Assembly (NCBI GenBank): GCA_964408705.1 | Contig: CAYPAI010000001.1 | Span: 63,750 to 127,749 of the forward strand | Length of the DNA: 64,000 bases | Direction: 5' to 3' | DNA from: Candidatus Woesearchaeota archaeon | GTDB lineage: Archaea > Nanobdellota > Nanobdellia > SCGC-AAA011-G17 > PNOQ01 | Part shown: one piece after another, positions 9,738 to 54,549 of the stretch | Position numbering within the stretch: the first letter of the stretch is position 1 | Layout of the letters: every line of letters begins with the position of its first letter | The notes under the pieces: model-generated | Database searches by the model: none | Told to the model about the DNA's origin: nothing | Seen by the model: only the letters and a program-made list of their open reading frames with translations | Made by a program: the position numbers and the translations under genes

Positions 9738-11048
9738 ATGACAAGTGATTTTCTTGAATACTATTCTAAAAGAGAAGTACAAAACAATATAGCCTTAAAC
9801 TGTGAAGACAGAGAACTGGCTGCTAAACTAGGTGATAAGGGTTTTTCTAAAAGACCAAATGTCCTTCAATATGGTGGAGAGGTTTTGGACTTTGTAAAGA
9901 GAGGGGCAACTTCCTTCCATATCTCCGAAGAGCATTGGAAAGATCCTTTAATGTTAGTCCCTGGCATGAACAAAAAAAATTTAGATCAATTAAGAAAAGG
10001 GTGGGATTTAATCTTAGATATAGATAGCCCTGATCTTAAAGACTCTAAGATTATAACTTACTACTTAATTGAAGCATTAAAGTTTAATGATGTTAAGAAT
10101 ATATTTGTAAAATATTCAGGAAATAAAGGATTTCATATCGCAATACCTTTTCAATCATTTCCTAGTGAAGTTAATGGAGTTCCAACTAAAGATCTTTTTC
10201 CAGAAGGACCCAGGATTGTAACTGCTTATCTCTTAAATATGATCAAACCTCATATGGAAAAAGAATTCGGAAATAAGGTTTCAGATATTTTCAAGGTAGA
10301 CACTGGTTTAATCTCCAATAGACACATGTATAGGGCGCCATACTCGCTACATGAAAAGAGTGGATTAGTTAGTGTCCCTATAGATAAGGAAGAAGTTTTA
10401 AGTTTTGATAAGGCTAAAGCATTACCAGATAGAGTAGATTCTTCTGATAAGTTTTTAGGAGACAAAATACTTGTAAAGGGTGACGCCAAAAATTTGATTC
10501 TCCAAGCATTTGACTGGAATTCTAGAAATTTAAGAAGTGAGATTAAGGAAATACCAAAAAAAGAATATAAGGATTTGGAAGAAGAAATCTTACCTTCTGC
10601 ATTTCCCCCATGCATAACAAAAGGATTAGAGCAAATGGAAGATGGTAAAAAAAGATTTTTATTTATACTTATCAATTTTCTTAAAAATACTGGATATAGT
10701 TTTGAAAAGTTGGAAGAAGTAGTAAGGACATGGAACCAAAAAAATGAAGAACCTCTTAGGGAAGGATACATCATATCTCAGTTGAATTGGCATAAGAGAC
10801 AGTCAGAAAAAGTCCTACCACCTAACTGTCCACATTCTTCTCAAAATTCTGAGATGAATTATTATAAAGACTTAGGGCTTTGTAATCCTGACCACTTGTG
10901 TTTAAAGGGTAAAAACCCTACAAATTATGCGATTAGGAAATCAATTATCTTAAAAAATAGTAATAAAAGTAAGCTTTATAAATCAGATATGAAAACTAGG
11001 TCTAATGGGAAGAATAAAGACAACAATGATAAAGAGTATAACTCTTAA
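9738..11048 (+). CDS. priS: DNA primase, PriS catalytic core fused to a C-terminal Cys-containing helical (PriL-CTD-like) domain
   Basis: 436 aa. Archaeo-eukaryotic primase motifs are present: LILDIDSPD (DxD), YSGNKGFHIAIPF (SGxRGxH) and RHMYRAPYSLHEKSG. The C-terminal ~170 aa are helical and carry four Cys (PPCITKG, NCPHS, GLCNPDHLC). Confidence 0.75.
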   Translation: MTSDFLEYYSKREVQNNIALNCEDRELAAKLGDKGFSKRPNVLQYGGEVLDFVKRGATSFHISEEHWKDPLMLVPGMNKKNLDQLRKGWDLILDIDSPDLKDSKIITYYLIEALKFNDVKNIFVKYSGNKGFHIAIPFQSFPSEVNGVPTKDLFPEGPRIVTAYLLNMIKPHMEKEFGNKVSDIFKVDTGLISNRHMYRAPYSLHEKSGLVSVPIDKEEVLSFDKAKALPDRVDSSDKFLGDKILVKGDAKNLILQAFDWNSRNLRSEIKEIPKKEYKDLEEEILPSAFPPCITKGLEQMEDGKKRFLFILINFLKNTGYSFEKLEEVVRTWNQKNEEPLREGYIISQLNWHKRQSEKVLPPNCPHSSQNSEMNYYKDLGLCNPDHLCLKGKNPTNYAIRKSIILKNSNKSKLYKSDMKTRSNGKNKDNNDKEYNS

Positions 11049-33566: not shown

Positions 33567-35888
33567 CTAACCACAACAACATCTTATTCCACAATCAAAA
33601 GGTCCATAACAATAATCATCCCCCCAATCATCAAAATCTGTATTACACCCCAGAGGATATTGTACTTCAAATTGGCAAAGATCATAATAATTAGTTGCCT
33701 CATACCAATATGACATATCATGATTACAACTATCTGGCGAGTTTCCTCCGTAATACTTCCATCCTCCGCCTGATTGATCTACGTCTCCCATCATATACCA
33801 CCAGTTTATATAATTACCCCATTGACAGTTGTCTTGGCAATTAAGTCCTTTACTTTGGCAGAACTCCTCACAATTTCCTTCATTTAATTCGTCCTGGTTA
33901 CAATCATGCTCAAAAGTGAACGGAGTTTGTTCCCCATGATGATCATACAATTGTCCTCCTGGATAAGGTGCAGAGCCATCTGGACAATGAGGATAACCGT
34001 CTTCTTGATCACCATTCCAATCACAATCATAAACTTCTGAGTCTTGTGTTCCTTCTGGATAAGTAGAATAACTTACTGGCCATCCTTGATGCTCATGACA
34101 ATTGTTTGGCCAGTTTCCCCAAGTTGAACTCCATCCGCACTCGCTATGGCATACTTCATACCAATTATTCCCAGATAATTCACAACCAGGCCCTCCCCAT
34201 TCGGCATCTCCATTACAAACTCCTGCGCAGTCAAATTCTCCAAACCCTCCACACTCTCCCGTGCAATCTGATTGGGAGTTTCCACCACAAGTCCCTGTAC
34301 AGTCTATTTCTAATCCTCCTCCGCACTGTCCTGAACAGTCTGCCCAAACATCTCCTTCTACTTCACAAACACAACTACCATGCTGGTTAGTATTTACTCC
34401 ATCTCCATTACATACTCCACAATCATCCCTTTCTGAAGATCCTCCACAAACTCCAAAACAATCTTGTTCTGCATTGCCCCCACACTGTCCTGAACAGTCT
34501 GCCCAAACATCTCCTTCTACTTCACAAACACAACTACCATGCTGGTTAGTATTTACTCCATCTCCATTACATACTCCACAATCATCTATTTCGGCTGAAC
34601 CTGCACAAATACCAAAACAATCTTGTTCTGAATTACCCCCACATTGTCCTGCACAATCTACTTCTGTGTCTCCGTCACACACGCCTGCACAATCTTCACA
34701 GCTAGAGTGGCAACTATCAAGATAATATCCACAAAAGCCACATTCATCTAGCACTTTAGTTCCCCCACAAACTCCTGCACAATCTACTTCCTGTGTACAT
34801 TCTCCATCGCAATCATACTGATTGTCTGGATAGTTCTCAGGGTATATGCAACTTGTTGATGTTGTTGCAGTATTTTGATAATTACACCCATCTTCATCAG
34901 TGCATCCTGAATAAGTTGTATGGAAGCAATTACCCCATTCCGTAGGAATTTGTGACCCAGTAGTATCTGAAATAATTCTGGCATTGTTATTGTCAAAACA
35001 AACCTCAGAACCTATCGAACTATACTCAATTTCTAAAATTAATTGTGTTTCTTTATTTATTGTTAGTTCAGACGATCCACACTCTATACAATCGGCAGGT
35101 ATAACTTGACCACTTATTGAAAATGCGAGAACCATAGGATTTCCTGCTTTAGAAGATATTATAAAATCATTCTCCTCAACACTCCCTCCTGACACATCTT
35201 CTAATTCAAGTCCTTCAACATTAAATTGTATTCCTGCGACATTCGTATTGCTAGTCATATAAACCTTTATTTTTTTGTTGATTGTATCTACTTCTAGTAT
35301 TTCAACTTTCGCAGCAGGTTCAGTCCTTAGTGGGTCTTCTTCTGGAAAGTTTGCATCCACATTCGTGCCAGTGTAAAGAACAGGATCTAAAACATCATAC
35401 ACAGACAATGCCTCTGCATCTGCATAGTGGTCACAAATCCAAGTTTCGCCCTGGTGATGACCATACCTTATACAATTTGCCATTTTAATGTACCAAGGGG
35501 TACCTCCTCCTCCACTTTCTTCACAATCACAAGTCTCGCAATTCATACACTCATCTTGGCCATTTACGTTGCAAGAATTACAACAAACACAATTACTTCC
35601 CAGATTTGCACCCACTATCCCTTTAGGTTTTTCAACAAAACAATCTTCACCTTTAAATTCGTGTGGTCCAAATCTTTCCCAACCTTTGCACGAAATTCCT
35701 TTCTTTATTAATTCAAATGAAGAAGGCGCATTACCTTGGATCCTATCTATCTCTAAACTTATACGTTCAACAATTCTTTGGACAGCATTATCTCTGGGGT
35801 CTTGAGATTGCCTAGAAAACTCGGTACATCCTGAAATAAATAAAATACTGATTAATAATAAACTTAAAACTAAATTACCTCTTTTCAT
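33567..35888 (-). CDS. Large secreted/surface Cys-rich repeat protein with cohesin-like domain (putative lipoprotein)
   Basis: 773 aa; signal peptide with lipobox-like ISGC. Dozens of CxGxCGG...DxCGVCNGDG Asp-rich, Ca-binding-like repeats. The central segment resembles a cohesin/Ig-like beta-sandwich (VEILEVDTINKKIKVYMTSNTNVAGIQFNVEGLELEDV). More than 100 Cys in total. Confidence 0.6.
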   Translation of the reverse strand: MKRGNLVLSLLLISILFISGCTEFSRQSQDPRDNAVQRIVERISLEIDRIQGNAPSSFELIKKGISCKGWERFGPHEFKGEDCFVEKPKGIVGANLGSNCVCCNSCNVNGQDECMNCETCDCEESGGGGTPWYIKMANCIRYGHHQGETWICDHYADAEALSVYDVLDPVLYTGTNVDANFPEEDPLRTEPAAKVEILEVDTINKKIKVYMTSNTNVAGIQFNVEGLELEDVSGGSVEENDFIISSKAGNPMVLAFSISGQVIPADCIECGSSELTINKETQLILEIEYSSIGSEVCFDNNNARIISDTTGSQIPTEWGNCFHTTYSGCTDEDGCNYQNTATTSTSCIYPENYPDNQYDCDGECTQEVDCAGVCGGTKVLDECGFCGYYLDSCHSSCEDCAGVCDGDTEVDCAGQCGGNSEQDCFGICAGSAEIDDCGVCNGDGVNTNQHGSCVCEVEGDVWADCSGQCGGNAEQDCFGVCGGSSERDDCGVCNGDGVNTNQHGSCVCEVEGDVWADCSGQCGGGLEIDCTGTCGGNSQSDCTGECGGFGEFDCAGVCNGDAEWGGPGCELSGNNWYEVCHSECGWSSTWGNWPNNCHEHQGWPVSYSTYPEGTQDSEVYDCDWNGDQEDGYPHCPDGSAPYPGGQLYDHHGEQTPFTFEHDCNQDELNEGNCEEFCQSKGLNCQDNCQWGNYINWWYMMGDVDQSGGGWKYYGGNSPDSCNHDMSYWYEATNYYDLCQFEVQYPLGCNTDFDDWGDDYCYGPFDCGIRCCCG
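34300..34700. repeat. Near-identical tandem direct repeat (~157-bp unit, ~2.5 copies) inside the Cys-rich protein gene
   Basis: Two ~110-bp blocks (about 34326-34437 and 34483-34590) are almost identical (ctgtcctgaacagtctgcccaaacatctccttctacttcacaaacacaactaccatgctggttagtatttactccatctccattacatactccacaatcatc). A partial third copy follows. Confidence 0.7.
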
Positions 35889-35921
35889 ACTTTTTTAAAT
35901 ATATTTCCATATATAAAATTA

Positions 35922-35996
35922 TGGGCCCGATGGGATTTGAACCCACGACCCCTTGGTTAAGAGCCAAGTGCTCTAACCAAACTGAGCTACGGACCC
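35922..35996 (-). tRNA. tRNA-Lys (anticodon CTT)
   Basis: Hand-folded 75-nt cloverleaf. Acceptor GGGUCCG/CGGGCCC, D-arm GCTC-AGTTTGGTTA-GAGC, anticodon stem CTTGG/CCAAG with loop CTCTTAA, T-arm GTGGG-TTCAAAT-CCCAT, discriminator A. Confidence 0.8.
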
Positions 35997-36090
35997 ATAA
36001 AAAAAGTTAAATTATTTCATTTAAAAAAGTACCTACTTTTTAGTTTGAAATTACAAAAAATATAAAAACCACATATATTCTTCTAATTAT

Positions 36091-39476: not shown

Positions 39477-40316
39477 GTGTATTTGGTGAAAAAATACTTA
39501 GATAAACTTGAAATTGAATTAAAATTGAGGGGTTTTTCAAAAAGAACCCTCAATACATATTTTACCAATGTTAGATTATTTCTTAACCAATTAACTAAAA
39601 ATCCTGAAGAAACCACTGAAGATGATATAAAATTATATTTTGCAAACCTTATTGCCAATAACCTGTTAAGTCCTAGGTCCATTGCAGTAAAGAAAGCATC
39701 CTTAAAATTTTTTTATGAAGAAGTTTTAGGTAAAAAGATAATTAATCTGAAAACACCCAAAATACCTAAATCTATCCCTGTGTTTTTAACAAAGGATGAA
39801 ATTAAGAAATTGTTTATTGCTTCTTCTTCTAAAAAATCTCTTTTGATCATGAAATTACTTTATTCTACAGGGTTACGTGTAAGCGAATGTGTAAATCTAA
39901 AAACATCTGATTTAGAAATTGAAGAAGGAGTGGGGTGGGTTAGAAGAGGTAAGGGTGATAAAGATAGGGCCATATTCTTTCCAAAATCACTAGGCCGTGA
40001 CTTAAATAAGTATATCCAAACTTTATCTGAAACTGAGCAATATTTGTTTCCTGGAGGGGATAAGGGACACTTATCTACTAGAAACATACAAAAAATAATA
40101 AATTTGGCTGCAAAAAAGGCAAAAATCCCTAAAAGAGTGACTGCACATAAACTAAGACATAGTTTTGCTACCCATAATTTAGATAAGGGGGTAGACATAA
40201 GGATTATCCAAGAGTTATTAGGACATTCAGATCTATCTACGACTCAGATATATACTCATGTTTCCAAGGAACAGTTAAAAAAAGTAAAAAATGTACTTGA
40301 TGAGTTAGAATATTAG
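39477..40316 (+). CDS. xerA: Tyrosine recombinase, XerC/XerD/XerA-like (site-specific integrase)
   Basis: 279 aa; GTG start. N-terminal SAM-like core-binding domain; C-terminal catalytic R...HxLRH...Y region (HKLRHSFATHNLDKGVDIRIIQELLGHSDLSTTQIYTHV). Confidence 0.8.
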   Translation: MYLVKKYLDKLEIELKLRGFSKRTLNTYFTNVRLFLNQLTKNPEETTEDDIKLYFANLIANNLLSPRSIAVKKASLKFFYEEVLGKKIINLKTPKIPKSIPVFLTKDEIKKLFIASSSKKSLLIMKLLYSTGLRVSECVNLKTSDLEIEEGVGWVRRGKGDKDRAIFFPKSLGRDLNKYIQTLSETEQYLFPGGDKGHLSTRNIQKIINLAAKKAKIPKRVTAHKLRHSFATHNLDKGVDIRIIQELLGHSDLSTTQIYTHVSKEQLKKVKNVLDELEY

Positions 40317-40924: not shown

Positions 40925-41512
40925 ATGGTTTTTAAATTTTTTAAAACAAAAAGTTCAAAATTAGATAAAAAATTTAAAGAAATTAATAATAGTTTAACCA
41001 GTTCTTTTTTAAAAATAAAGGAAGATATTTTATCAATAAGTACCCATTTAGGAGATCTCCATACTCACAAAGAAAATCATAGTGAGTTAATCAAGGAATT
41101 AGATTCTCGAATTAAAACATTAGAAAATTTTATTGAAGATATACTTTCTAACCAGCCACGTGTCCAAACAACCCACGTGTCCAAACAAACACAAACAAAT
41201 GTCCGTCCAAAACGGATGTCCGTTCCTGTCCAAACAGAAGTTTTAGAAAGTTTAAAAAGACTAACACCCATGGAAAGGTCATTAGTATGGGCACTTTTAA
41301 ACACAGATATAAGGCTTAGTTATAGTGACCTCTCAAGGATACTTGGCAAAGACGAGTCTACAGTGAGAGGACAAGTTAGCAACATAAAAAGGAAAACGGA
41401 TGACCTTGTGTTAGAACAAAGTGAGAACAGCGGACAAAAAAGATTTTATGTTGAAGAAAGAGTAAAAAACAAAATAATGAGAAAATATAAGGTTAAAGGC
41501 AGGAAAAAATAG
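40925..41512 (+). CDS. Coiled-coil plus C-terminal HTH protein (paralog A)
   Basis: 195 aa; N-terminal heptad-like coiled coil, a low-complexity Q/T/P linker, and a C-terminal HTH (LTPMERSLVWALLNTDIRLSYSDLSRILGKDESTVRGQVSNIKRK). Confidence 0.45.
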   Translation: MVFKFFKTKSSKLDKKFKEINNSLTSSFLKIKEDILSISTHLGDLHTHKENHSELIKELDSRIKTLENFIEDILSNQPRVQTTHVSKQTQTNVRPKRMSVPVQTEVLESLKRLTPMERSLVWALLNTDIRLSYSDLSRILGKDESTVRGQVSNIKRKTDDLVLEQSENSGQKRFYVEERVKNKIMRKYKVKGRKK

Positions 41513-41602: not shown

Positions 41603-42190
41603 TTAAGAAAACCTTGTTTGATTGGGATCTTTGTGATAGTAAAGGTTAGTTAATTTTTCTTTAAGATTTAATTCCTTAAAATCTTGGTGAATAGTGAGAG
41701 TTATTGTACGATTATTGAGTTTTTTCTTTAAAAGAGGTAACCCTTTCCTTATTATAGAGCTAATATAACTCCTAATGCACCCCATAGAAAGGTTTAATTT
41801 TGAAGATAAATCATTGTAATTAACATTTCTGCCTAAATCCTCCTCTAATTGATATATTGTCAAAAACACTAAGAACTCTTGATTAGTGAGATTATCTATT
41901 CTTTTTTCTAAAGTTTTCTTTAATGATTGAATGTTTAATGAATGATTATTTGTTGAATGATTATTTGTTGAATGATTGAGTGAATAGACCCCTTCATTTC
42001 CAGTGGAACTTTTACTCTGATCGAGAGGTATTTGAAGAGTAGGAGCCTCGTTCCCACCATATTTACCACTTTGGCTAATTTTCTCTAATATTTTATCCAA
42101 TTTAGCTTCAATACCTTCTACCCTCTCGCTTAATGAAGAAATATCTTCTTTTACCTTTGTGAAAGATTGTCTTACCTTATCTTGAAACAT
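41603..42190 (-). CDS. Coiled-coil plus C-terminal HTH protein (paralog B)
   Basis: 195 aa; same architecture and length as paralog A (VKEDISSLSE vs IKEDILSIST; HTH LTNQEFLVFLTIYQLEEDLGRNVNYNDLSSKLNLSMGCIRSYISSIIRK). Contains HSTNN tandem repeats. Confidence 0.45.
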   Translation of the reverse strand: MFQDKVRQSFTKVKEDISSLSERVEGIEAKLDKILEKISQSGKYGGNEAPTLQIPLDQSKSSTGNEGVYSLNHSTNNHSTNNHSLNIQSLKKTLEKRIDNLTNQEFLVFLTIYQLEEDLGRNVNYNDLSSKLNLSMGCIRSYISSIIRKGLPLLKKKLNNRTITLTIHQDFKELNLKEKLTNLYYHKDPNQTRFS

Positions 42191-44235: not shown

Positions 44236-45909
44236 CTACATTCTTGCCGGGATATCTATTCCTAATATCTTAAGCCCATTCCCTAAGGTAATCTTTGTAC
44301 ACTTCACTAAACTTAATCTTGCATTGGTTAGTGTTGATTCTTCATTTTCTAAAATTTTACAAGACTGGTAATATGTATTGAATTTTTTACAAAGTTCAAC
44401 AAGATAATTACAAAGTAAAGAGGGTTTGTGTTCTCTTGCACTTTTTTCTATTATTTTAGGATATTTGTTTATTTGTTTGATTAGGCTTAACTCCACGGGG
44501 GCGTTCAATGTCGAGAACTTTATTTTTTTGTGGATTTTGCCTTTTTTCAATATTGAGTTTATCCTTGCACCAGTATACTGCAAATATGGCCCAGTCTCAC
44601 CTTCAAATTTAATAGATTCTTTAGGATCGTATGTGAAATTTTTTAAAGGGTCATATTTCAACATAAAAAACTTTATTGCACCCATTCCAATTATTTCTGA
44701 AGTCTGCCTTAAAATTTGACTAGGTAAATTTTTATTTCTCTTTTTTATTTCTTTTTCTGCCATATCTTTCATTTTATCTGCAAGAGTGTCTGCATCTACA
44801 ATATTTCCTTCTCTTGACTTCATTTTTCCATGGGGTAAACTAATATACCCATAAGACAGGTGGAAAAGTTTTTTAGTAAAATTGTAATTTAATCTCTTTA
44901 AAATTTCGAATAGAGTTTTGAAATGATATTCTTGTTCATTAGCTACTACATATATCATTTCATCCATGGAATAATCTTTATTTCTTAAATCTGCAAGAAT
45001 TATATCTTGAGTGATATATATTGATGTACCATCTGCCCTCATTACTACTTTTTCACCGAGGTTTTCCTTTTTTAAATCTACAATTATATTTCCTTTTTCG
45101 TCTTTTTGAAATAATCCTTTAGTTAATCCTTCATCTATTATTTTTTTCCCAAGGCCGTAATGATTACTTTCAAAATAGGTTTTGTCTATTTTTGTTCCAA
45201 ATCTTTTGTAAGTTTTATTGATCCCTTCTACCCCCCATCTGTTTAATTTTTTCCATAAGTCGGTCACTTTTTTGTCTTTTTGTTCCCATTTGACTAATAA
45301 CTTGCTCAACTCTTCATTTAATTTTTTATTTAATTTTGCCTTTTTTTCATAAAGAACATAATAATCTCCTACAAAATGGTCCGATTTCTTATCTGGGGCC
45401 TTGTTTTTACCATAATTAAGATATGCAAACATAGACTTACAAATATGAATACCTCTATCATTAATTATATCTACTCTTATTGCATTATTTCCGACGGCCT
45501 TGTTTAATTCAATTAGGGAATTACCTAAAAGCATATTCCTAACATGACCTAGGTGGAGAGGTTTGTTAGTATTTGGACCAGGTGATTCAATAACTACTAC
45601 TTTTTTGGTTTGTTTTTTGTGGCCATAATTTTTGTTTTTAGTTATCACTTGAGAAATTGTTTTTTTAAGGAGGGTGGATTCTTTTATAAAAAAATTTAAA
45701 TATGGCCCTACTGCTTCGATCTTAGAAATATAATTTGGTTTTTTTAGTTTTGATTTTAATGTTTTAGCCTCTTTGACAGGGTTGCTTCCTATTTTAAAAC
45801 AAGGTAAGGAGTAGTCTCCCATCTTTTCAGAAGAAGGTCTTTCTAGATTTATTTGTTTTAATCCTAACTGTTTTTTTAAGAAGTTTGCAATATTTTTTTC
45901 AAAGTCCAT
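44236..45909 (-). CDS. argS: Arginyl-tRNA synthetase
   Basis: 557 aa; class I HIGH region (PNTNKPLHLGHVRN) and a C-terminal DALR anticodon-binding domain. Confidence 0.9.
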   Translation of the reverse strand: MDFEKNIANFLKKQLGLKQINLERPSSEKMGDYSLPCFKIGSNPVKEAKTLKSKLKKPNYISKIEAVGPYLNFFIKESTLLKKTISQVITKNKNYGHKKQTKKVVVIESPGPNTNKPLHLGHVRNMLLGNSLIELNKAVGNNAIRVDIINDRGIHICKSMFAYLNYGKNKAPDKKSDHFVGDYYVLYEKKAKLNKKLNEELSKLLVKWEQKDKKVTDLWKKLNRWGVEGINKTYKRFGTKIDKTYFESNHYGLGKKIIDEGLTKGLFQKDEKGNIIVDLKKENLGEKVVMRADGTSIYITQDIILADLRNKDYSMDEMIYVVANEQEYHFKTLFEILKRLNYNFTKKLFHLSYGYISLPHGKMKSREGNIVDADTLADKMKDMAEKEIKKRNKNLPSQILRQTSEIIGMGAIKFFMLKYDPLKNFTYDPKESIKFEGETGPYLQYTGARINSILKKGKIHKKIKFSTLNAPVELSLIKQINKYPKIIEKSAREHKPSLLCNYLVELCKKFNTYYQSCKILENEESTLTNARLSLVKCTKITLGNGLKILGIDIPARM

Positions 45910-45952: not shown

Positions 45953-46216
45953 TTAAATAATATCTTCTTCAGAAACAACAACAAAATCGCCTACAGCAAT
46001 AACTGAACTATGTGGGACTAATAAATTTCCATGATCGTCCCTTTCTAAATCTAAGTTATCTGCCAAGTGTGTTGGGTTCCTTAATTCAAGATTTAAAATC
46101 TCACCTGTTCGGGATTCGAAAACAATATTTCCGACTTCTCCAAACTTTTTGCCAGTTTTACTGACAACTGTTTTCCCTAAGATTTGTTTTGAATATTTTC
46201 TTTCTTCGCTTGCCAT
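45953..46216 (-). CDS. PRC-barrel domain protein
   Basis: 87 aa; ILGKTVVSKTGKKFGEVGNIVFESRTGEILNLEL pattern. Confidence 0.55.
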   Translation of the reverse strand: MASEERKYSKQILGKTVVSKTGKKFGEVGNIVFESRTGEILNLELRNPTHLADNLDLERDDHGNLLVPHSSVIAVGDFVVVSEEDII

Positions 46217-46267: not shown

Positions 46268-46558
46268 TTATTTTACAGTATCTTCTATATACTCTTTACT
46301 ACTTTCTAAAACGTTTTCTATGATCTCTACATCTTTTATTTCTTCTACTATTGCTGCACCAGTCTGTATAATTTCATTATCAGTGCTTATTTTACTTTCA
46401 GAATTTATTGCACCAATTACAAATAGAAATGCAACAGATATTATTAATATTACTAGTACTGATTTTGCAAAAGTTTTTACGAAAATATGTTTAGACATCT
46501 CTAAGACTAGTAATGAAATAATTAAAACAACTATTATAGTTAATACTTCCATAATCAA
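46268..46558 (-). CDS. Small membrane protein
   Basis: 96 aa; two TM helices plus an acidic tail. Confidence 0.35.
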   Translation of the reverse strand: MIMEVLTIIVVLIISLLVLEMSKHIFVKTFAKSVLVILIISVAFLFVIGAINSESKISTDNEIIQTGAAIVEEIKDVEIIENVLESSKEYIEDTVK

Positions 46559-46559
46559 G

Positions 46560-47022
46560 ATTTAATTTATCTAGTATTTAAATATATTGTTAAGGTACTA
46601 CCCCCTCACCTACTTTTCAAATGGAAATCCTATATTTTTTAGATTTTGATTTTTTTCCCTTGGAAAATGTCTAATCTTTTCTTGATTTTATGTATTTTTT
46701 TAAGGATATATCGTCTATAAAACTTGAATATTTTTTTTATTTATTTTTTTAAAGTATTTCTTAACTAGAAGCCGTAATATACCATTATTTTTAAGAATTG
46801 ATATTTTTGTTTTTAAATTTTAATTTATATGTTTTATTATTATATTATATTTATATTGTAATTTATATTTTTTATACTGTTACTACTTTTTAGTTTCCAA
46901 AAGAAAAGTAGGTGTTTAGTTTGAGGATGTTGTTATTTTTTGTTTCCACAGGAAATATAGGCCTCAGGGTATATTTCATAATATGAAAATTCTTAAATAA
47001 TAATTTTGAGTAAACTTTCAGA
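46560..47022. other. Predicted chromosomal replication origin (oriC) with ORB-like dyads and AT-rich DUE
   Basis: A 460-bp noncoding region directly upstream of orc1/cdc6. Perfect dyads TTTTCC-CTT-GGAAAA (46653-46667) and TTTCC-ACA-GGAAA (46943-46955), matching the archaeal mini-ORB core (TTCCAnnGGAAA). Half-site GTTTCCAAAAGAAAAG at 46893-46908. A ~150-bp stretch of more than 90% A+T lies between them (46735-46890). Confidence 0.5.
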
Positions 47023-48231
47023 ATGGTAAAGGAAGACATAAGTGGTTTTTTTGAAGAATATCTTTCTAAAGAATCTATTTTTAAAAATAAAAAAGTTTTA
47101 CAATTTAGCCATACCCCTGACAACATCCCCCACAGAGAAGAGCAAATAAAAGAGATTGCATCAATTCTTGCACCTTCATTAAGAGGTGAAAAACCTTCCA
47201 ACCTTTTCTTATATGGTAAAACTGGTACAGGTAAGACACTTTCAATGTTTCATGTTATCAAGAATTTGGAAAAAATTGCAAAAACCAAAAAAATAGGTTT
47301 AAAAGTTTTTTATCTGAACTGTAAACTAAAACGAGTTGCAGATACAGAATATAGATTAATTGCTGCACTTGCGAGAGATTTTGGTGAAGATGTTCCAATT
47401 ACAGGATTACCCACTGATGAGATATACAGGATATTTATGGAAAGGATAGATAGAAAAGAGATGAATTTAATTTTAGTTTTGGATGAGATTGATCAACTAG
47501 TCAAAAAAGCAGGAGATGAAATATTATATAACCTTACTAGGATAAACTCCGAATTAAAAAAAACACAAATAACTGTAGTTGGAATATCTAACGATCTGCA
47601 ATTTGCTAATTATTTGGACCCAAGGGTTAAATCTTCCTTAACTGAAGAAGATATCAACTTCCCATCATATAATGCATTACAATTGCAAGACATCCTATCA
47701 GAAAGGGCCAAGTCTGCCTTCAAAAGTAAAGTAGTTGAAGAAGGAGTTATAAGTAAATGTGCAGCTTATGCTGCGAGGGAACATGGGGATGCAAGAAGGG
47801 CATTAGATTTACTAAGAGTTGCAGGAGAGTTGGCTGAAAGAAATAATGAAAGCAAGCTTAAGATAGATTTTATTGATAATGCTGAAGAAAAAATAGAGAG
47901 AGATTTAATATATGATGTCATAAAAACATTACCAAAACAGTCTCAAGCAACACTTCTTGCAATTTTTAAGTTGAACCGAGACTCACAAGATAAGATTTTA
48001 ACAGGAGATGTTTATGAAACTTACAAGTCTTATTGTATTGCTTCAGGTCTAAAAACACTAACTCAAAGAAGGCTATCTGATCTTATTGCAGAGTTAGATT
48101 TATTGGGAATAATTAATGCGAGAGTTGTTAGCAAAGGAAGATATGGAAGGACAAGGGAAATAAAGTTGGCAGTGCCACAAACTAATTTACCTTCATTAAA
48201 TAAGGAGTTAAAAGGATGGTTGGGACTGTAA
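47023..48231 (+). CDS. cdc6: Orc1/Cdc6 replication initiator
   Basis: 402 aa; AAA+ Walker A (LFLYGKTGTGKT), Walker B (LVLDEID) and a C-terminal winged helix. Confidence 0.9.
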   Translation: MVKEDISGFFEEYLSKESIFKNKKVLQFSHTPDNIPHREEQIKEIASILAPSLRGEKPSNLFLYGKTGTGKTLSMFHVIKNLEKIAKTKKIGLKVFYLNCKLKRVADTEYRLIAALARDFGEDVPITGLPTDEIYRIFMERIDRKEMNLILVLDEIDQLVKKAGDEILYNLTRINSELKKTQITVVGISNDLQFANYLDPRVKSSLTEEDINFPSYNALQLQDILSERAKSAFKSKVVEEGVISKCAAYAAREHGDARRALDLLRVAGELAERNNESKLKIDFIDNAEEKIERDLIYDVIKTLPKQSQATLLAIFKLNRDSQDKILTGDVYETYKSYCIASGLKTLTQRRLSDLIAELDLLGIINARVVSKGRYGRTREIKLAVPQTNLPSLNKELKGWLGL

Positions 48232-49853
48232 ATGAAAAAATAACTAACCTCCTGAAGAAAGGATTTTTAGTTGGTCCAGATTTAATTAAGGAGTTAGAGG
48301 ATCCAAACTTAGATACATTAAGTGACATACCTTATGAAGATCGGCCTTCAGTAATAACAAAAGACATCCATGATTATTTTTTAAAAAAACCAAATAAAAT
48401 AAATATCTCTTGGAAGGATTTTGAAAAAGCAAGAGTTAATTTTGAAAAAGGCAAAGATAAGAAAACCTATCCTTCCTTGCTAAAGTTAACAAATTATAAA
48501 GATAATAAGGAAAAGTTAGACAAGCTCTTGAGTGAAGTTAAAAAACCAGTTAAGCCCATTATATCTCTTGAGAAAAATCCTTCTACTGTTCCAATTGTTT
48601 TGAGGAATTATACAGATAAAAAAACAAAGATTAATGTTAATACTTTTGTTGAACATTATAAACTAAGATATAACTTCTTGAGGAAACTGTTACAGGCCAG
48701 GCAAGACCTGAGTGGTGCAGTGTCTATAGATAGATTGAACCATCGGCGTAAAGGAGATAAAGTTTCTACAATTGGGATGGTCTATTCTAAAGAATATACA
48801 AAAAATAAGCACCTCCTCCTTGAAATAGAAGATATTACTGGTAGGGTAAAATGTTTAGTTATGAATTCTAAAAAAGATCTTTTTGAACTTTCTAAAGATA
48901 TTGTGTGTGATGAAGTGATAGGGTTGAAAGGGACAGCAGGAGATGGCCTAATATTTATTGAAAATGTTTATTTTCCAGATGTTCCTGCCGGAGAAATTAT
49001 TAAAAAAGGGCAGAAGGAAGAATATATAGCATTTATTTCAGATATCCAAATAGGTTCCAAAAAATTTCTTAAGAAGAGTTTTATGAGATTTATAGACTGG
49101 ATAAATGGAGAATATGGTTCAAAGGAACAAAAAGAAGAAGCATTAAAAATAAAATACTTGTGTGTAGTTGGAGATGTTGTAGATGGAGTAGGAATATATC
49201 CAGGACAAGAATCAGATTTAGAGATAAAAGATATTTATGATCAATATAAGGAGTGTGCAAATGTTTTTTCAAAGATAAGGAAAGACATACACATAATTAT
49301 ATCTCCAGGGAACCATGATGCCGTCAGATTGGCAGAACCTCAACCTGTTTTTGAAAGAAGCATGTCGGAGGATTTGTGGGAAATGGAAAATGTAACTCTT
49401 GTTACTAATCCGGCAACAGTTAATGTGGGGGCGACGGAAACATTTGAAGGACTTGATGTATTGATGTACCACGGATTTAGTTTTGATTTTTATGTAGATT
49501 ATTTAGATAATATACGGAACAAGGGGGGTTATGACAGCATTTGTGTTTTAATGAAGATGTTGCTACAAAAGAGACACCTAGCACCAACTCACACATCAAA
49601 TCTTTCAGTGATAGATCCTGAAGAAGATTATATGGTAATAGAAGATATACCCGATATTTTTGTTACAGGTCATGTGCACAAGGCAAAAATAGACCAATAT
49701 GGTAAGACTACACTAATTAATAGCAGCTGTTGGCAAGCTAAGACAGACTACGAGGAGAAGTTAGGACATACTCCTGAGCCAGCAAGAGTTGCAATAATTA
49801 ATATGAAAACAAGGGAGACAAAATTTATGAAATTTTTAGTAGAAGATGAATGA
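48216..49853 (+). CDS. dp1: DNA polymerase D small subunit (DP1, 3'-5' exonuclease)
   Basis: 545 aa; OB fold plus calcineurin-like phosphoesterase motifs (GDVVDGVG, GNHDA, GHVH). Confidence 0.85.
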   Translation: MVGTVNEKITNLLKKGFLVGPDLIKELEDPNLDTLSDIPYEDRPSVITKDIHDYFLKKPNKINISWKDFEKARVNFEKGKDKKTYPSLLKLTNYKDNKEKLDKLLSEVKKPVKPIISLEKNPSTVPIVLRNYTDKKTKINVNTFVEHYKLRYNFLRKLLQARQDLSGAVSIDRLNHRRKGDKVSTIGMVYSKEYTKNKHLLLEIEDITGRVKCLVMNSKKDLFELSKDIVCDEVIGLKGTAGDGLIFIENVYFPDVPAGEIIKKGQKEEYIAFISDIQIGSKKFLKKSFMRFIDWINGEYGSKEQKEEALKIKYLCVVGDVVDGVGIYPGQESDLEIKDIYDQYKECANVFSKIRKDIHIIISPGNHDAVRLAEPQPVFERSMSEDLWEMENVTLVTNPATVNVGATETFEGLDVLMYHGFSFDFYVDYLDNIRNKGGYDSICVLMKMLLQKRHLAPTHTSNLSVIDPEEDYMVIEDIPDIFVTGHVHKAKIDQYGKTTLINSSCWQAKTDYEEKLGHTPEPARVAIINMKTRETKFMKFLVEDE

Positions 49854-52800
49854 TTTAAATAAATATGATGAAGGCATAGATAAAAAAGTTAAAAAAGCAT
49901 ATGATCTTGCTAAATCTGCAAAGTTAAAAAGAATAGATCCTTCGGAGCGGATCGAAATACCTTTAGCTAAAAACATGGCAGAGAGGGTTGAAGGTTTGAT
50001 AGGTGTTGCTGCACCTCAAATAGTTGGGAAAGGCCTACCCCAAAGAATAGAACAATTAGAAAAAGAAAATGGGAAGTTGGATTGGAGAGTCGGATTAAAA
50101 ATAGCATACGAAGTTGCTAGTGAAAAATTTTGTAAATTTGAAGATAAAAAAGAAGCAATAGAGGTTGGTATAAGAGTGGGGTTTGCTTATGTTACTGTAG
50201 GAGTTGTAGCAAGCCCTTTAGAAGGTTTTACTGGGATAAAGATTAGAAAGAGAAAGGATGGAAAGGAATATCTTGCATTGTGCTACGCAGGGCCGGTAAG
50301 GAGTGCAGGAGGTACTGCTGCCTCTGTTTCGGTATTAATAGCAGATTATTTAAGAAAAAAAATGGACTATTCTAAGTATGATCCAACTCCTGAAGAGGTG
50401 AAGAGGGCAGTAATAGAGTTAACAGATTATCATGAGAGGATAACAAATTTACAATATTTTCCTAGTCCTGAAGAAATTGAGAACATGGTTTCAAATTTAC
50501 CTGTTCAAATAGATGGGGATCCGACCGAAAAGTTGGAAGTTTCAAACCACAAAGATTTGGATAGGATTGAAACCAATAGGATAAGAGGTGGTTTTTGTTT
50601 AGTGTTGGGGGAGTGCCTTTGCCAAAAGGCAAAGAAAGTAAATAAACAACTAGAAGATTGGGGAGACGAGTTAGGAATGGGAGATTGGGATTTTATGCAT
50701 TCTTTTTGTAAAATTCAAACAAAATTAAAAGCAAAAGAAAAAGGTATACAAGATTCAACTGAAAAAATTTCACCAGACTTTACTTTCATAAAAGATATTG
50801 TTGCAGGAAGGCCCGTTTTAACATACCCTTTGAGAGAAGGTGGATTTAGATTAAGATATGGGCGTTCGAGAACTACTGGGCTTAGCTCAGTGGCTATACA
50901 CCCTTTAACTATGAAGATCCTTAATAATTACATTGCAATAGGTACTCAACTCAAAATGGAGAGGCCAGGAAAAGGAACTGCCTTAAGTTCTTGTGATTCA
51001 ATAGAAGGCCCAATTGTAAGATTAGACAACGGGGAAGTTATTTTTTTAAAAGAAGAAGACTATGATAAATTTAAAAATAACATAGATAAGATCTTGTTTT
51101 TAGGAGACATATTAATTCCCTATGGAGATTTTTTGAATAGAGCACATGTGTTAGTCCCTCCAGGGTATTGTGAAGAATGGTGGATAAAAGAAATAAAAAA
51201 TAAAAAAAGATCCCCTCAAGAGTTAGAAGTTGAAACAAAGATTAACCTTTCATTGTTGAAACAACTATACAATGACCCTATAAAAACAAATATTTCTGTA
51301 AAAGATTCTTTTACTATTTCTGAAAAGTTGGGAGTCCCGTTTCACCCAAAATATACATTCCATTGGAAAGATATCTCTGTAAAAGAATTATTAATCCTTT
51401 TGAGCAAAGTTATAAAATCTACTATAAAACGAGGAGAGGAGTTTAAATTAATTTTTCCACTACATGAAGAAGAATTAGAAAAACATATTTCTCTTAAAAA
51501 GATTCTTGAAAAAGTAGGCGTTCCTCATAAATTAGTTTCTAATGAATATTTAATAATTGAAAAAGAATGGGCAGAGTCTTTTTTGGTAAATCTTGGATTG
51601 TACAAAGAGGGGGCTGATTTAAAAAAAACCATAGAAGAAATAGATACTTCTAATGAAGTTTTACAAATAATAAATAATCTTTCTGAAATAAAAATAAGGG
51701 ATAAATCTGGAGTTTTCGTTGGTGCAAGAATGGGTAGGCCTGAAAAGGCAAAAATACGTAAATTAAAAGGTAGCCCCCACGTATTGTTTCCAGTAGGTAA
51801 TGAAGGGGGTAGATTAAGATGTTTCCAATCTGCATTGGAGAAAGGAAAAATTAATGCAGAGTTTCCCCTCAAACATTGTGAAAAGTGCGATATAGAGACA
51901 GTATATCCTTCTTGTCAAACTTGTAAAAATAAAACTACTCCAAGATATTATTGTAGACTTTGTAAAAAGGTTTTAAGCGAAGAGGTTTGTCCAAACCATG
52001 GAAAAGGGACAAACTATAATTTTAGGAGTATAAATATTTCTGAGTATTATTCTAGTTCTTTAAAAAAGCTAGGAATAAACAATTCTCCCGATTTAGTAAA
52101 GGGTGTGAGGGGAATGTCTAGTGATAGCAAAGATGTTGAAAATTTGTCTAAAGGATTACTTAGGGCAATACACAATATTCATGTAAACAAAGATGGTACA
52201 GTTAGGTATGATATGACGGAATTAGCATTAACACACTTTAAACCTAAGGAAGTTGGAACTAGTGTAGAAAAATTAATTAAACTGGGATATACTAAAGATG
52301 TTTTAGGAAAAGAATTAACCGACGAAGACCAAATTTTACAAATTTATCCTCAAGATGTTATTTTGCCTTCATGCGAAGAATCAAATGAAGAAGGTTGCGA
52401 TTCAATAATGTATAGAGTTTCTAAGTTTGTAGATGATTTATTGAAACATGTTTATGGGTCAAGTCCATTCTATGAGTTAAAATCTAAATCAGATCTAGTT
52501 GGTCACCTTGTTATAAGTCTTGCACCTCACACTTCTGCAGGAGTGGTAGGAAGGATAATAGGTTTTTCAAAAACCCAAGGAGGTTATGCTAGTCCGATTT
52601 GGCATTGTGCTCAAAGAAGAGATTGCGATGGAGATGAGTGCGGGATCATGTTGTTAATGGATGGTTTATTAAATTTTTCAAGGAAGTATTTACCAGGTCA
52701 CAGGGGTGCAACTCAAGATGCCCCGCTTGTGCTAACTTCAAAAGTTATCTTAACTGAAGTTGATGATATGGTTTTTGATATGGATACTGAATGGGAGTAT

Positions 52801-53370
52801 CCTCTCGAATTTTATGAAGCATGTGAAGAGTATAAGATGCCATGGGACATTAAAATAAAAAAAATAGGTGACAATCTTGAAAATTTTGGAGAATTTATAA
52901 TTGGATATACTCACGAAACAGATAACTTAAACGATGGAGTAAGATATAGTGCCTATAAGCAAATTCCAACGATGCAAGAGAAAGTTCTTGGCCAGATGGA
53001 TCTTGCCGAAAAAATAAGGGCAGTTGATGAAGATGATGTTGCAAGACTAGTAATAGACCGGCATTTCATCAGAGACATAAAAGGTAATCTTAGGAAGTTT
53101 AGTATGCAGGAGTTTAGATGTGTGGCTTGTAATACAAAATATAGGAGGACACCTCTTAATGGAAAGTGCACTAATTGCAAGGGCAAACTTATTTTTACTA
53201 TTTCAGAAGGTAGTGTTACAAAATATTTGATGCCTTCATTACAACTTGCAGAAAAATATAATCTTCCAGAATATACTTCCCAAACTTTAGACTTACTTAA
53301 AAGAAGAATAGAGAGTTTTTTTGGAAAAGAAGAAGACAGGCAAGAAGGGTTAAGTAGGTGGGTTCTTTGA
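49846..53370 (+). CDS. dp2: DNA polymerase D large subunit (DP2)
   Basis: 1174 aa; conserved DP2 segments and Cys clusters (CEKCDIETVYPSCQTC, CRLCKK...CPNHG, CVACNTK...CTNCKG). No intein. Confidence 0.85.
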   Translation: MNDLNKYDEGIDKKVKKAYDLAKSAKLKRIDPSERIEIPLAKNMAERVEGLIGVAAPQIVGKGLPQRIEQLEKENGKLDWRVGLKIAYEVASEKFCKFEDKKEAIEVGIRVGFAYVTVGVVASPLEGFTGIKIRKRKDGKEYLALCYAGPVRSAGGTAASVSVLIADYLRKKMDYSKYDPTPEEVKRAVIELTDYHERITNLQYFPSPEEIENMVSNLPVQIDGDPTEKLEVSNHKDLDRIETNRIRGGFCLVLGECLCQKAKKVNKQLEDWGDELGMGDWDFMHSFCKIQTKLKAKEKGIQDSTEKISPDFTFIKDIVAGRPVLTYPLREGGFRLRYGRSRTTGLSSVAIHPLTMKILNNYIAIGTQLKMERPGKGTALSSCDSIEGPIVRLDNGEVIFLKEEDYDKFKNNIDKILFLGDILIPYGDFLNRAHVLVPPGYCEEWWIKEIKNKKRSPQELEVETKINLSLLKQLYNDPIKTNISVKDSFTISEKLGVPFHPKYTFHWKDISVKELLILLSKVIKSTIKRGEEFKLIFPLHEEELEKHISLKKILEKVGVPHKLVSNEYLIIEKEWAESFLVNLGLYKEGADLKKTIEEIDTSNEVLQIINNLSEIKIRDKSGVFVGARMGRPEKAKIRKLKGSPHVLFPVGNEGGRLRCFQSALEKGKINAEFPLKHCEKCDIETVYPSCQTCKNKTTPRYYCRLCKKVLSEEVCPNHGKGTNYNFRSINISEYYSSSLKKLGINNSPDLVKGVRGMSSDSKDVENLSKGLLRAIHNIHVNKDGTVRYDMTELALTHFKPKEVGTSVEKLIKLGYTKDVLGKELTDEDQILQIYPQDVILPSCEESNEEGCDSIMYRVSKFVDDLLKHVYGSSPFYELKSKSDLVGHLVISLAPHTSAGVVGRIIGFSKTQGGYASPIWHCAQRRDCDGDECGIMLLMDGLLNFSRKYLPGHRGATQDAPLVLTSKVILTEVDDMVFDMDTEWEYPLEFYEACEEYKMPWDIKIKKIGDNLENFGEFIIGYTHETDNLNDGVRYSAYKQIPTMQEKVLGQMDLAEKIRAVDEDDVARLVIDRHFIRDIKGNLRKFSMQEFRCVACNTKYRRTPLNGKCTNCKGKLIFTISEGSVTKYLMPSLQLAEKYNLPEYTSQTLDLLKRRIESFFGKEEDRQEGLSRWVL

Positions 53371-53430: not shown

Positions 53431-54549
53431 ATGGGTATTCTATCTAAGAAAAATAATCAAGATTCTTTTTTTGTTTTAGATGAGGAAAATAAAAAATTAA
53501 GAGAGACAGTGTCTAGTCTCCGAAAGGAACTTGATGTCTATAAAACTCCACCTCTGATTGTGTGTGATGTAGTCAAAGTAATGGATAGTAAAATAATAAT
53601 CAGGTTACAAAACGGAAACAAATTTTTAGTTAACCTTAGTCCTTCATTAATACAAAGGATAAAACCTGGTCAGAGAGTTTTAGCAGAGCAGAAATCCTTA
53701 ACTGTGGTAGAAATTCTTGAAAATATCAAAAATTTTGATGTTGAAAATTTTGTGATTATGGAAAAACCAAAGATTTCTTGGGAAGATATAGGTGGATTGG
53801 ATGATCAAATTCAAGAGATACATGAAGTGGTAGAATTGCCACTGAAGAATCCCAACTTATTTAAGAAAGTAGGAATCCACCCCCCAAAAGGAGTTTTATT
53901 GTACGGCCCTTCCGGCACAGGTAAAACTATTTTGGCTAAGGCAGTTGCAAAAAGTACAAATTCAACATTTATAGAAATAGTAGGTAGTGAATTAGTTCAA
54001 AAGTTCATAGGAGAGGGTGCAAAATTAGTTAAAGATATTTTTGATTTGGCTAGAGAGAGGGCCCCTTCAGTCATATTTATAGATGAGTTAGATTCAATTG
54101 CTGCAGAAAGGGTTGAGATGGGTACTAGTGGGGAGAGAGAAGTCCAAAGGACTTTTATGCAACTTCTAAGCGAGATAGATGGTTTTGATTCATTAGATAA
54201 TGTTAAGATAATTGGTGCTACTAATCGGATTGATGTATTAGACAGTGCGATAATTCGTCCAGGAAGATTAGATAGGTTAATACACATGCCTCTCCCAGAG
54301 GAAAAAGCAAGGGAAGAGATATTTAAGATACATTCAAGAGATATGAGGTTTTCAAAAATAGATGTTCCTAAACTAAGTGTGTTGACCGAAGGTTTTTCAG
54401 GGGCAGAGATAAAATCTATGTGCACAGAGGCAGGTTATTTTGCAATAAGGAATAAGAGAACTATTGCAACTATGGGAGATTTTTTATTGGCAATAGAAAA
54501 GATAAGACAGGAAGAAATAGATATAGAGCCAATTAAAATGTTTGGTTAA
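53431..54549 (+). CDS. pan: Proteasome-activating nucleotidase (PAN)-like AAA ATPase
   Basis: 372 aa; N-terminal coiled coil plus OB fold, then a single AAA domain (GVLLYGPSGTGKT, IDELDS, SRH). Confidence 0.75.
   Translation: MGILSKKNNQDSFFVLDEENKKLRETVSSLRKELDVYKTPPLIVCDVVKVMDSKIIIRLQNGNKFLVNLSPSLIQRIKPGQRVLAEQKSLTVVEILENIKNFDVENFVIMEKPKISWEDIGGLDDQIQEIHEVVELPLKNPNLFKKVGIHPPKGVLLYGPSGTGKTILAKAVAKSTNSTFIEIVGSELVQKFIGEGAKLVKDIFDLARERAPSVIFIDELDSIAAERVEMGTSGEREVQRTFMQLLSEIDGFDSLDNVKIIGATNRIDVLDSAIIRPGRLDRLIHMPLPEEKAREEIFKIHSRDMRFSKIDVPKLSVLTEGFSGAEIKSMCTEAGYFAIRNKRTIATMGDFLLAIEKIRQEEIDIEPIKMFG

Follow-up and report, generated by a model that had tools for sequence, protein, structure and literature searches.

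The question raised by the DNA studied here is whether the gap directly upstream of an orc1/cdc6 gene is the place where replication of the chromosome begins. The DNA is a stretch of 64,000 nucleotides from a Candidatus Woesearchaeota archaeon (contig CAYPAI010000001.1; this whole stretch is called the window), and the gap of about 470 bp at 46553-47022 separates the gene of a 96-aa membrane protein on the minus strand from the orc1/cdc6, DP1 and DP2 genes on the plus strand. Judged from its sequence, the gap is very probably a chromosomal replication origin of the oriC1 type, belonging to a Woesearchaeota-like archaeon (Nanobdellota, DPANN). This reading is favoured because the computable defining features of an Orc1-dependent archaeal origin are all present and conserved. 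An oriC had been proposed here in an original prediction made from the letters alone, and it is now supported by the Orc1-1-type neighbouring gene, by the match and spacing of the origin recognition boxes (ORBs), by their inverted arrangement around a duplex unwinding element (DUE), written ORB(-)/DUE/ORB(+), and by phylogenetic footprinting. In the literature searched, no experimentally mapped origin was found for Woesearchaeales or close relatives, since DPANN archaea are uncultured, and genome papers merely rotate their assemblies to orc1 (10.64898/2026.05.13.725050). Our analysis has established which elements make up the locus, how specific they are in statistical terms, that they are conserved, and what the initiator is.

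The gap upstream of orc1

The following features were identified in the gap.

46574..46588, minus strand: TATA-box-like element GTATTTAAATATATT; the ATG at 46552 follows after about 29 nt
46600..46629, minus strand: full-length ORB L1, GATTTCCATTTGAAAAGTAGGTGAGGGGGT, with the dyad proximal to the A/T tract and the G-string distal
46653..46667, minus strand: mini-ORB L2, reading TTCCAAGGGAAA on the minus strand, core only, without G-rich extension
46677..46890, no strand: A/T-rich predicted duplex unwinding region, from AT content and nearest-neighbour stability
46814..46857, plus strand: conserved intra-tract motif TAAATTTTAATTTATATGTTTTATTATTATATTATATTTATATT, with its core GTTTTATTATTATAT at 46831-46845
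46879..46921, plus strand: conserved leader GTTACTACT..AAG, followed by R1
46892-46921, plus strand: ORB R1, AGTTTCCAAAAGAAAAGTAGGTGTTTAGTT
46941..46970, plus strand: ORB R2, TGTTTCCACAGGAAATATAGGCCTCAGGGT
46993..47000, plus strand: TATA-box-like element TTAAATAA; the orc1 ATG follows after about 27 nt

Two perfect dyads had been described in the original prediction, and both are present: TTTTCCCTTGGAAAA at 46653-46667 and TTTCCACAGGAAA at 46943-46955, which form the cores of L2 and R2. The conserved repeat unit was, however, found to be an ORB of about 30 nt, TTCCA-N3-GAAA-N3-AGG(T) followed by a G-rich part, rather than the perfect dyad, and L1 and R1 had been missed or recorded only as a half-site. 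L1 and L2 lie on the minus strand and R1 and R2 on the plus strand, and in all four boxes the dyad faces the A/T tract and the G-rich end points outward, which is the ORB(-)/DUE/ORB(+) arrangement. The two sides are also related in sequence, as a 21-nt inverted repeat with 86% complementarity pairs L1 (46607-46627) with R1 (46894-46914) across the tract, and R1 and R2 share a direct repeat of 26 nt that is 81% identical (46887-46912 and 46936-46961). The core of L2 begins 39 bp inward of the L1 core, and R2 is placed 49 bp to the right of R1, about 80 bp from the orc1 ATG and about 40 bp upstream of the orc1 TATA box.

The tract between the boxes is both the AT maximum of the window at 50-200 nt and its least stable duplex by nearest-neighbour energy at 60-200 nt. 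A tract of about 150 bp with more than 90% AT had been claimed; the tract is real, and the figure is a slight overstatement, the content being exactly 90.0% over 150 nt (46727-46876). It rises to 93% over 100 nt (46777-46876) and to 96% in the best 50-nt window. The whole ORB(-)-to-ORB(+) gap measures 262 bp with 85% AT and a 93% AT core. Within it lies the intra-tract motif, from which a TA-rich run extends to R1. Its 15-nt core GTTTTATTRTWWTAT (46831-46845) is single in the window, even when one mismatch is allowed.

Could this be an ordinary AT-rich divergent promoter region in a genome of about 31% GC, with dyads that are chance matches? The two dyads by themselves exceed chance only marginally: TTTCCNNNGGAAA has only two matches on both strands of the 64 kb, which are the two dyads, against an expectation of 0.30, and 5 of 100 shuffled sequences reach two or more. 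Low-complexity AT-rich DNA also aligns readily. For a test of the full boxes, a 30-nt position weight matrix (PWM) was trained on the sequences upstream of orc1 in 14 related genomes and on nothing else; the window was held out of the training and then scanned. Four matches of at least 23 bits were obtained, namely L1 with 30.7 bits (the top match of the window), R2 with 27.2, a distal ORB described below with 26.2 and R1 with 23.3. The next-best match in 128 kb of strand reached 10.1 bits. Mini-ORB L2 gives no score on the 30-nt matrix, which is consistent with a core-only box. In nine further 20-kb metagenome loci outside the training set, the matches above 14 bits were almost exclusively the origin boxes and one distal box per locus. 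A perfectly palindromic mini-ORB core in DP2, TTCCATTGGAA (51355-51384, plus strand), was set aside as probably a chance match, with 7.7 bits and no conservation in relatives, and no match above 6 bits was found in 48216-49853, where a second ORB cluster inside dp1 was looked for.

The chance explanation fails further on conservation. All 29 related loci that could be evaluated have the pattern of ORB(-), AT-rich gap and ORB(+) upstream of orc1; 25 of these loci are non-identical and 15 lie outside the PWM training. The pattern persists in relatives with only 53-60% Orc1 identity. The inter-ORB gaps of the relatives measure 92-303 bp and contain 70-96% AT, as against 52-74% AT for the whole loci. 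Phylogenetic footprinting was based on alignment A1, made of the orthologous gaps of eight genomes with 71-84% Orc1 identity, and alignment A3, with the two closest relatives examined (96% Orc1 identity over 25 available residues, and 84%). The invariant blocks are L1, the TCCA of L2, the intra-tract block, GTTACTACT..AAG with R1, R2, and the TATA-like element that precedes orc1; between these blocks the DNA has diverged. L1 is conserved in all relatives, and R1 is likewise conserved. The L1-L2 spacing is 39-40 bp in seven relatives (loci L001, L002, L003, L005, L008, L009 and L014), and TCCA...G of L2 is invariant in A1. R2 is the most strongly conserved box, with the consensus TTTCCANNNGAAATATAGGTCYNTG, and in most relatives its position is fixed at -74 to -85 relative to the ATG of orc1. 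Three boxes scored so far above a background maximum of 10 bits by a matrix from other genomes, G-rich extensions and an exact L1-L2 spacing that are conserved, and a pattern kept in all relatives leave the chance explanation with next to no credibility, and barring an error in these computations we count it as already refuted.

The intra-tract block is invariant in both A1 and A3, and the DNA on its left diverges. Its core GTTTTATTRTWWTAT is present as a single copy, with relative position and strand unchanged, in 8 of the 14 loci of the first round and likewise in the later loci L018, L019, L020 and L023. This gives at least 11 non-identical relative loci with the core at the orthologous position (12 when the duplicate pair L004/L018 is counted). 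By analogy of position, the block is a candidate analogue of the Sulfolobus ucm motif.

Initiator, proposed mechanism and rival explanations

The protein encoded next to the gap carries the Pfam domains Cdc6_C, Cdc6_lid and AAA and scores 527.6 bits against the cut-off of 501 for the NCBIfam equivalog NF001625. Its best matches in the PDB are to Orc1-1 of S. solfataricus (2QBY_A, E=2e-109) and ORC1 of A. pernix (2V1U, E=6e-100), with Orc1-3 at 3.6e-42. By its sequence the window initiator is thus assigned as an Orc1-1 orthologue. The residues G120/L121 and R341, through which S. solfataricus Orc1-1 contacts DNA (PMC3089459), align to G128/L129 and R349 of the window protein, the residue numbers of that paper fitting the alignment at a constant offset of 11. 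Conservation was also seen in the recognition helix (TQRR) and in the wing (GRYG(K/R)T(K/R)EI). Identity of the window Orc1 is 71-84% to metagenome-assembled genomes (MAGs) labelled Candidatus Woesearchaeota and 53-60% to MAGs of Pacearchaeota, Nanoarchaeota and Aenigmatarchaeota, which places the organism among the DPANN archaea (Nanobdellota).

From these elements we infer Orc1 binding, MCM loading and firing at the locus, following a mechanism derived from the Sulfolobus, Aeropyrum and Pyrococcus systems. Monomers of the Orc1-1 type would bind the four ORBs with fixed polarity, with the winged-helix domain placed on the TTCCA-N3-GAAA dyad and the initiator-specific motif of the AAA+ domain on the G-rich distal part. 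The oppositely oriented sets of Orc1 at L1/L2 (minus) and R1/R2 (plus) would then flank the A/T tract and recruit MCM onto it, and the core of 93-96% AT beside R1 would be expected to melt first. The two TATA-like elements are presumably the promoters of the membrane-protein gene and of orc1. The left one is separated by 12 bp from the G-string of L1 and is maintained in relatives (alignments A1 and A3), and the right one corresponds to the conserved block AATnTTTATAA in A1. As L1 and R2 lie near these divergent TATA boxes, Orc1 occupancy probably modulates both promoters, including that of orc1 itself.

Such regulation could also be the main or only role of the locus. In that case the Orc1 sites would be genuine and would serve the autoregulation of orc1-polD and the control of the leftward gene, and the chromosome would be replicated from another site or in an origin-independent, recombination-driven manner. 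The abutting of L1 on the leftward TATA box and the fixed distance of about 80 bp between R2 and the orc1 ATG in most relatives agree with this explanation, as does a left arm without detectable replication-linked skew. It leaves unexplained, however, why inverted ORBs surround an extreme A/T tract with a motif inside it (29 loci), and known origins can combine regulation with origin function. We regard a mainly or purely transcriptional role as unlikely.

Several observations weigh against an active origin at this site. Without correction, the cumulative GC skew reaches its lowest point of the window at 46-47 kb, which coincides with the switch in gene strand. Because skew tracks the coding strand in this 64-kb window, the minimum loses its independent weight, and GC skew was set aside as an independent test of the origin. 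When GC skew at third codon positions (GC3) was corrected for coding strand, the signal disappeared on the left arm, with 0.160 for presumed leading genes and 0.173 for lagging ones; the short right arm gave 0.345 for leading and -0.05 for lagging genes, the latter being only five. The genes of the left arm are not biased away from the site either, with 23 co-oriented and 32 opposed. Further, the canonical oriC and Cdc6 are dispensable in Thermococcus kodakarensis (PMC5663688), a precedent by which canonical structure is no guarantee of use and which also speaks for the control-region explanation.

A third explanation is a real but secondary or dormant origin, with the main origin of the chromosome outside the window. 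The window covers only 64 kb of the chromosome, and multiple origins are common in some archaea (PMC4010727). Against this, orc1 is single-copy within the window, and a study of complete Nanobdellota genomes reports ORC1 among the conserved single-copy orthogroups, with the gene found in 206 of 208 of these genomes (10.64898/2026.05.13.725050), which favours one Orc1-dependent origin per genome. The oriC1 linked to Orc1-1 is moreover the ancestral and most conserved type of origin (PMC4010727; PMC12141716). A secondary or dormant origin is therefore considered quite improbable, and the gap is read in the following as the oriC1-type origin.

A distal box and the surrounding genes

The fourth high-scoring match to the matrix lies outside the gap, in the same orientation as L1 and about 5 kb from the origin.

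41982..42011, minus strand: distal ORB, AAGTTCCACTGGAAATGAAGGGGTCTATTC
41603-42190, minus strand: 195-aa coiled-coil and winged-helix gene, with the distal ORB inside its coding sequence

Every relative with enough flanking sequence has exactly one such distal ORB, in a homologous gene, in the same reading phase and on the L1 strand. The relatives are L007, L016-L020, L023, L024, L027, L030, L033 and L034. In all 13 checkable non-identical loci, the window included, the gene is 2-8 kb from oriC/orc1, and the recurrence holds for protein homologues with only 35-39% identity. Two parts of the 195-aa protein are predicted to be ordered, namely a long helix at the N-terminus and a winged helix of MarR/ArsR-like fold (AlphaFold, Foldseek E about 1e-3). 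The box encodes the peptide xSxGNxGV, whose residues are the sole invariant ones of an otherwise hypervariable linker, predicted to be disordered (residues 43-84, AlphaFold predicted local distance difference test (pLDDT) below 50), and the peptide is retained in 114 of 120 homologues.

Is the constraint on the protein or on the DNA? At position 1 of the peptide the homologues have S, F, I, V, N, L, T or G, for all of which NNT codons exist, and at position 3 they have T, S, I, N, K or M, for all of which ANN codons exist; NNT and ANN are what the ORB core T-TCC-A demands. Free variation among E, K, Q, R, D, V and I is seen at position 6, which falls on the variable triplet of the ORB. In the 12 loci with DNA, the codons TCC, GGA and GGG are always used, and AAT in 11 of the 12, with AAC in one. 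In the families of the window genes, the shares of these codons are 7.6% for TCC, 45% for GGA, 18% for GGG and 74% for AAT, which gives the TCC-GGA-AAT-GGG combination a joint chance of 0.0045 per independent lineage. This pattern of residue variation together with the fixed rare codons TCC and GGG shows that selection acts on the DNA.

From its sequence, the distal ORB is possibly an accessory Orc1 site. Like datA or the dp1 cluster of Pyrococcus, it could serve to titrate Orc1 or to position it; it could tie the expression of a regulator of replication or segregation to occupancy by the initiator; or it could cooperate with oriC by DNA looping. Tentatively, the origin may belong to a larger lineage-specific control system, made up of a factor-binding motif inside the DUE (a functional analogue of ucm and UBP) and a distal Orc1 box in a gene, a proposal that we consider doubtful.

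No specific family could be assigned to the 195-aa protein. Its Pfam and NCBIfam matches were all below threshold (HTH_11, DnaD_N and sigma region 4), the PDB profile search yielded coiled-coil noise only, and Foldseek gave nothing beyond the generic MarR/ArsR winged helix. A second 195-aa open reading frame (ORF), at 40925-41512 on the plus strand, is convergent with it; the two share a 13-residue N-terminal segment, SFxKxKEDIxSxS (E=0.01), by which paralogy is not established, and the neighbour is possibly a diverged paralogue without an ORB. The convergent neighbour in L033 and L034 is an ORF of 199-205 aa, with an HTH_11 match in L033 only.

Short lineage-specific tandem DNA repeats, for example GAATGATTATTTGTT about three times, were also seen directly after the distal ORB (window 41926-41985), as well as in L007 (about 130-190) and beside the distal ORB of L011/L030. 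They translate to low-complexity repeats such as NHSTN or PTDR in the same linker and could be a second DNA-level element or merely linker slippage. In the more distant relative L034 the gene has two ORBs, at 10204-10233 (plus) and 10260-10289 (minus), which face each other with their G-rich ends inward, a polarity opposite to that of the origin boxes.

The genes around the origin are as follows.

44236-45909, minus strand: arginyl-tRNA synthetase
45953-46216, minus strand: PRC-barrel protein, 87 aa
46268-46558, minus strand: 96-aa two-helix membrane protein, no family, likely ATG at 46552
47023-48231, plus strand: orc1/cdc6 initiator gene, 402 aa, with Pfam, NCBIfam and PDB matches
48216-49853, plus strand: PolD small subunit DP1 (Pfam, NCBIfam), overlapping orc1 and DP2 in the same orientation
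49846-53370, plus strand: PolD large subunit DP2 (Pfam, NCBIfam), overlapping DP1 and co-oriented with orc1
53431-54549, plus strand: PAN-like AAA ATPase

The gene order orc1/cdc6-DP1-DP2, which had been named as the classic origin neighbourhood, was borne out by the Pfam and NCBIfam matches, and the order around the gap is maintained in relatives. On the other side, the two-helix membrane protein (94-103 aa), whose promoter abuts L1, and the PRC-barrel protein are kept directly left of the origin in the closer relatives. The antisense ORF at 46890-47201, suspected earlier not to be real, was rejected as a gene: it has no Pfam match, comparable ORFs occur in only few relatives, and it overlaps both the start of orc1 and conserved ORBs. 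Apart from three tRNAs, none of them close to the gap, no non-coding RNA was returned when the window was scanned with Rfam at the gathering cut-offs.

In L002, L003 and L004 (and L016-L018) the orc1 frame runs 46-62 codons further upstream with a lysine/glutamate-rich N-terminal extension, a feature placed 140-190 nt upstream of the aligned orc1 start. In these loci R2 is about 200-240 nt from the aligned start and about 40-60 nt from the extended one. About 7 kb from the origin, a XerA-type tyrosine recombinase is encoded at 39477-40316 on the plus strand (NCBIfam NF040815, 260.6 bits against a cut-off of 220), and a tyrosine recombinase of the Phage_integrase family, similar in size (269-282 aa), is found at a comparable position beyond the ORB-carrying gene in L033 and L034. 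At 34001-36000 the GC content climbs to 37-43% and GC skew is strongly negative, in the long minus-strand gene 33567-35888, which is adjoined by tRNA-Lys (35921-35997).

Relation to known origins

The conserved anatomy described here defines where skew and coverage-based estimates of growth rate in metagenomes can start, and it supplies specific pieces of DNA for biochemical work with recombinant Orc1 and MCM. It also indicates that the oriC1/Orc1-1 module has been retained almost unchanged in reduced genomes. The gene-embedded ORB is a clean case of a coding sequence constrained by a predicted DNA-binding site, and it marks an uncharacterised winged-helix protein as a candidate replication-linked factor.

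The closest parallel in gene order is oriC of Pyrococcus abyssi and P. furiosus, which also lies directly upstream of cdc6/orc1, followed by dp1 and dp2 of PolD, and which likewise contains inverted long ORBs, AT-rich stretches and mini-ORBs (of 13 bp in Pyrococcus) (PMC1904270). The likeness extends to the single box. Purified Cdc6 binds P. furiosus ORB1 (PMC1904270), and comparison of this box (TTCCAGTGGAAATGAAACTCTGGGGGG, the reverse complement of the bound oligo) with L1 showed no difference in the core or in the 9-nt distance to the G-string, both being spaced as TTCCA-N3-GAAA-N9-GGGGG. In Pyrococcus, a cluster of ORBs is found inside dp1, whereas here a single distal ORB lies in an unrelated winged-helix gene across the origin. 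The host also differs, being a mesophilic-looking DPANN lineage of 31% GC.

In case of Sulfolobus/Saccharolobus oriC1, inverted ORBs flank an AT-rich DUE as they do here, and its initiator 2QBY_A is the closest solved relative of the window protein. The number of boxes is four (2+2) here as against three (ORB1-3) in Sulfolobus oriC1. According to the accessible part of a recent study (PMC12141716), ORB polarity is defined in Sulfolobus, with ORB2 and ORB3 inverted, and the 11-bp ucm inside the DUE of oriC1 is essential and is bound by UBP. The same part asks about analogues in other lineages and reports the ubp gene to be confined to Sulfolobales and Desulfurococcales. The ucm and the block around GTTTTATTRTWWTAT are both short conserved motifs inside a DUE, likened here by position, and from the confinement of ubp any factor that binds the motif here would be a different protein.

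The comparison of polarity between boxes and DUE rests on a statement in the accessible part of the Ori-Finder-Arch preprint (10.64898/2026.08.15.744077), which gives ORB(-)/DUE/ORB(+) as 67% of the predicted Cdc6-type archaeal origins. The Ori-Finder-Arch/DoriC predictions for Nanobdellota described there share this arrangement beside a Cdc6 gene. Going by that part of the preprint, the kind of origin is hence already known and automatic predictions already cover Nanobdellota; the spacing of 39 bp between L1 and L2, the motif within the tract and the ORB embedded in a gene do not appear in it. What the present locus adds to the known kind is modest, and consists of the conserved motif within the DUE and the distal ORB embedded in a gene.

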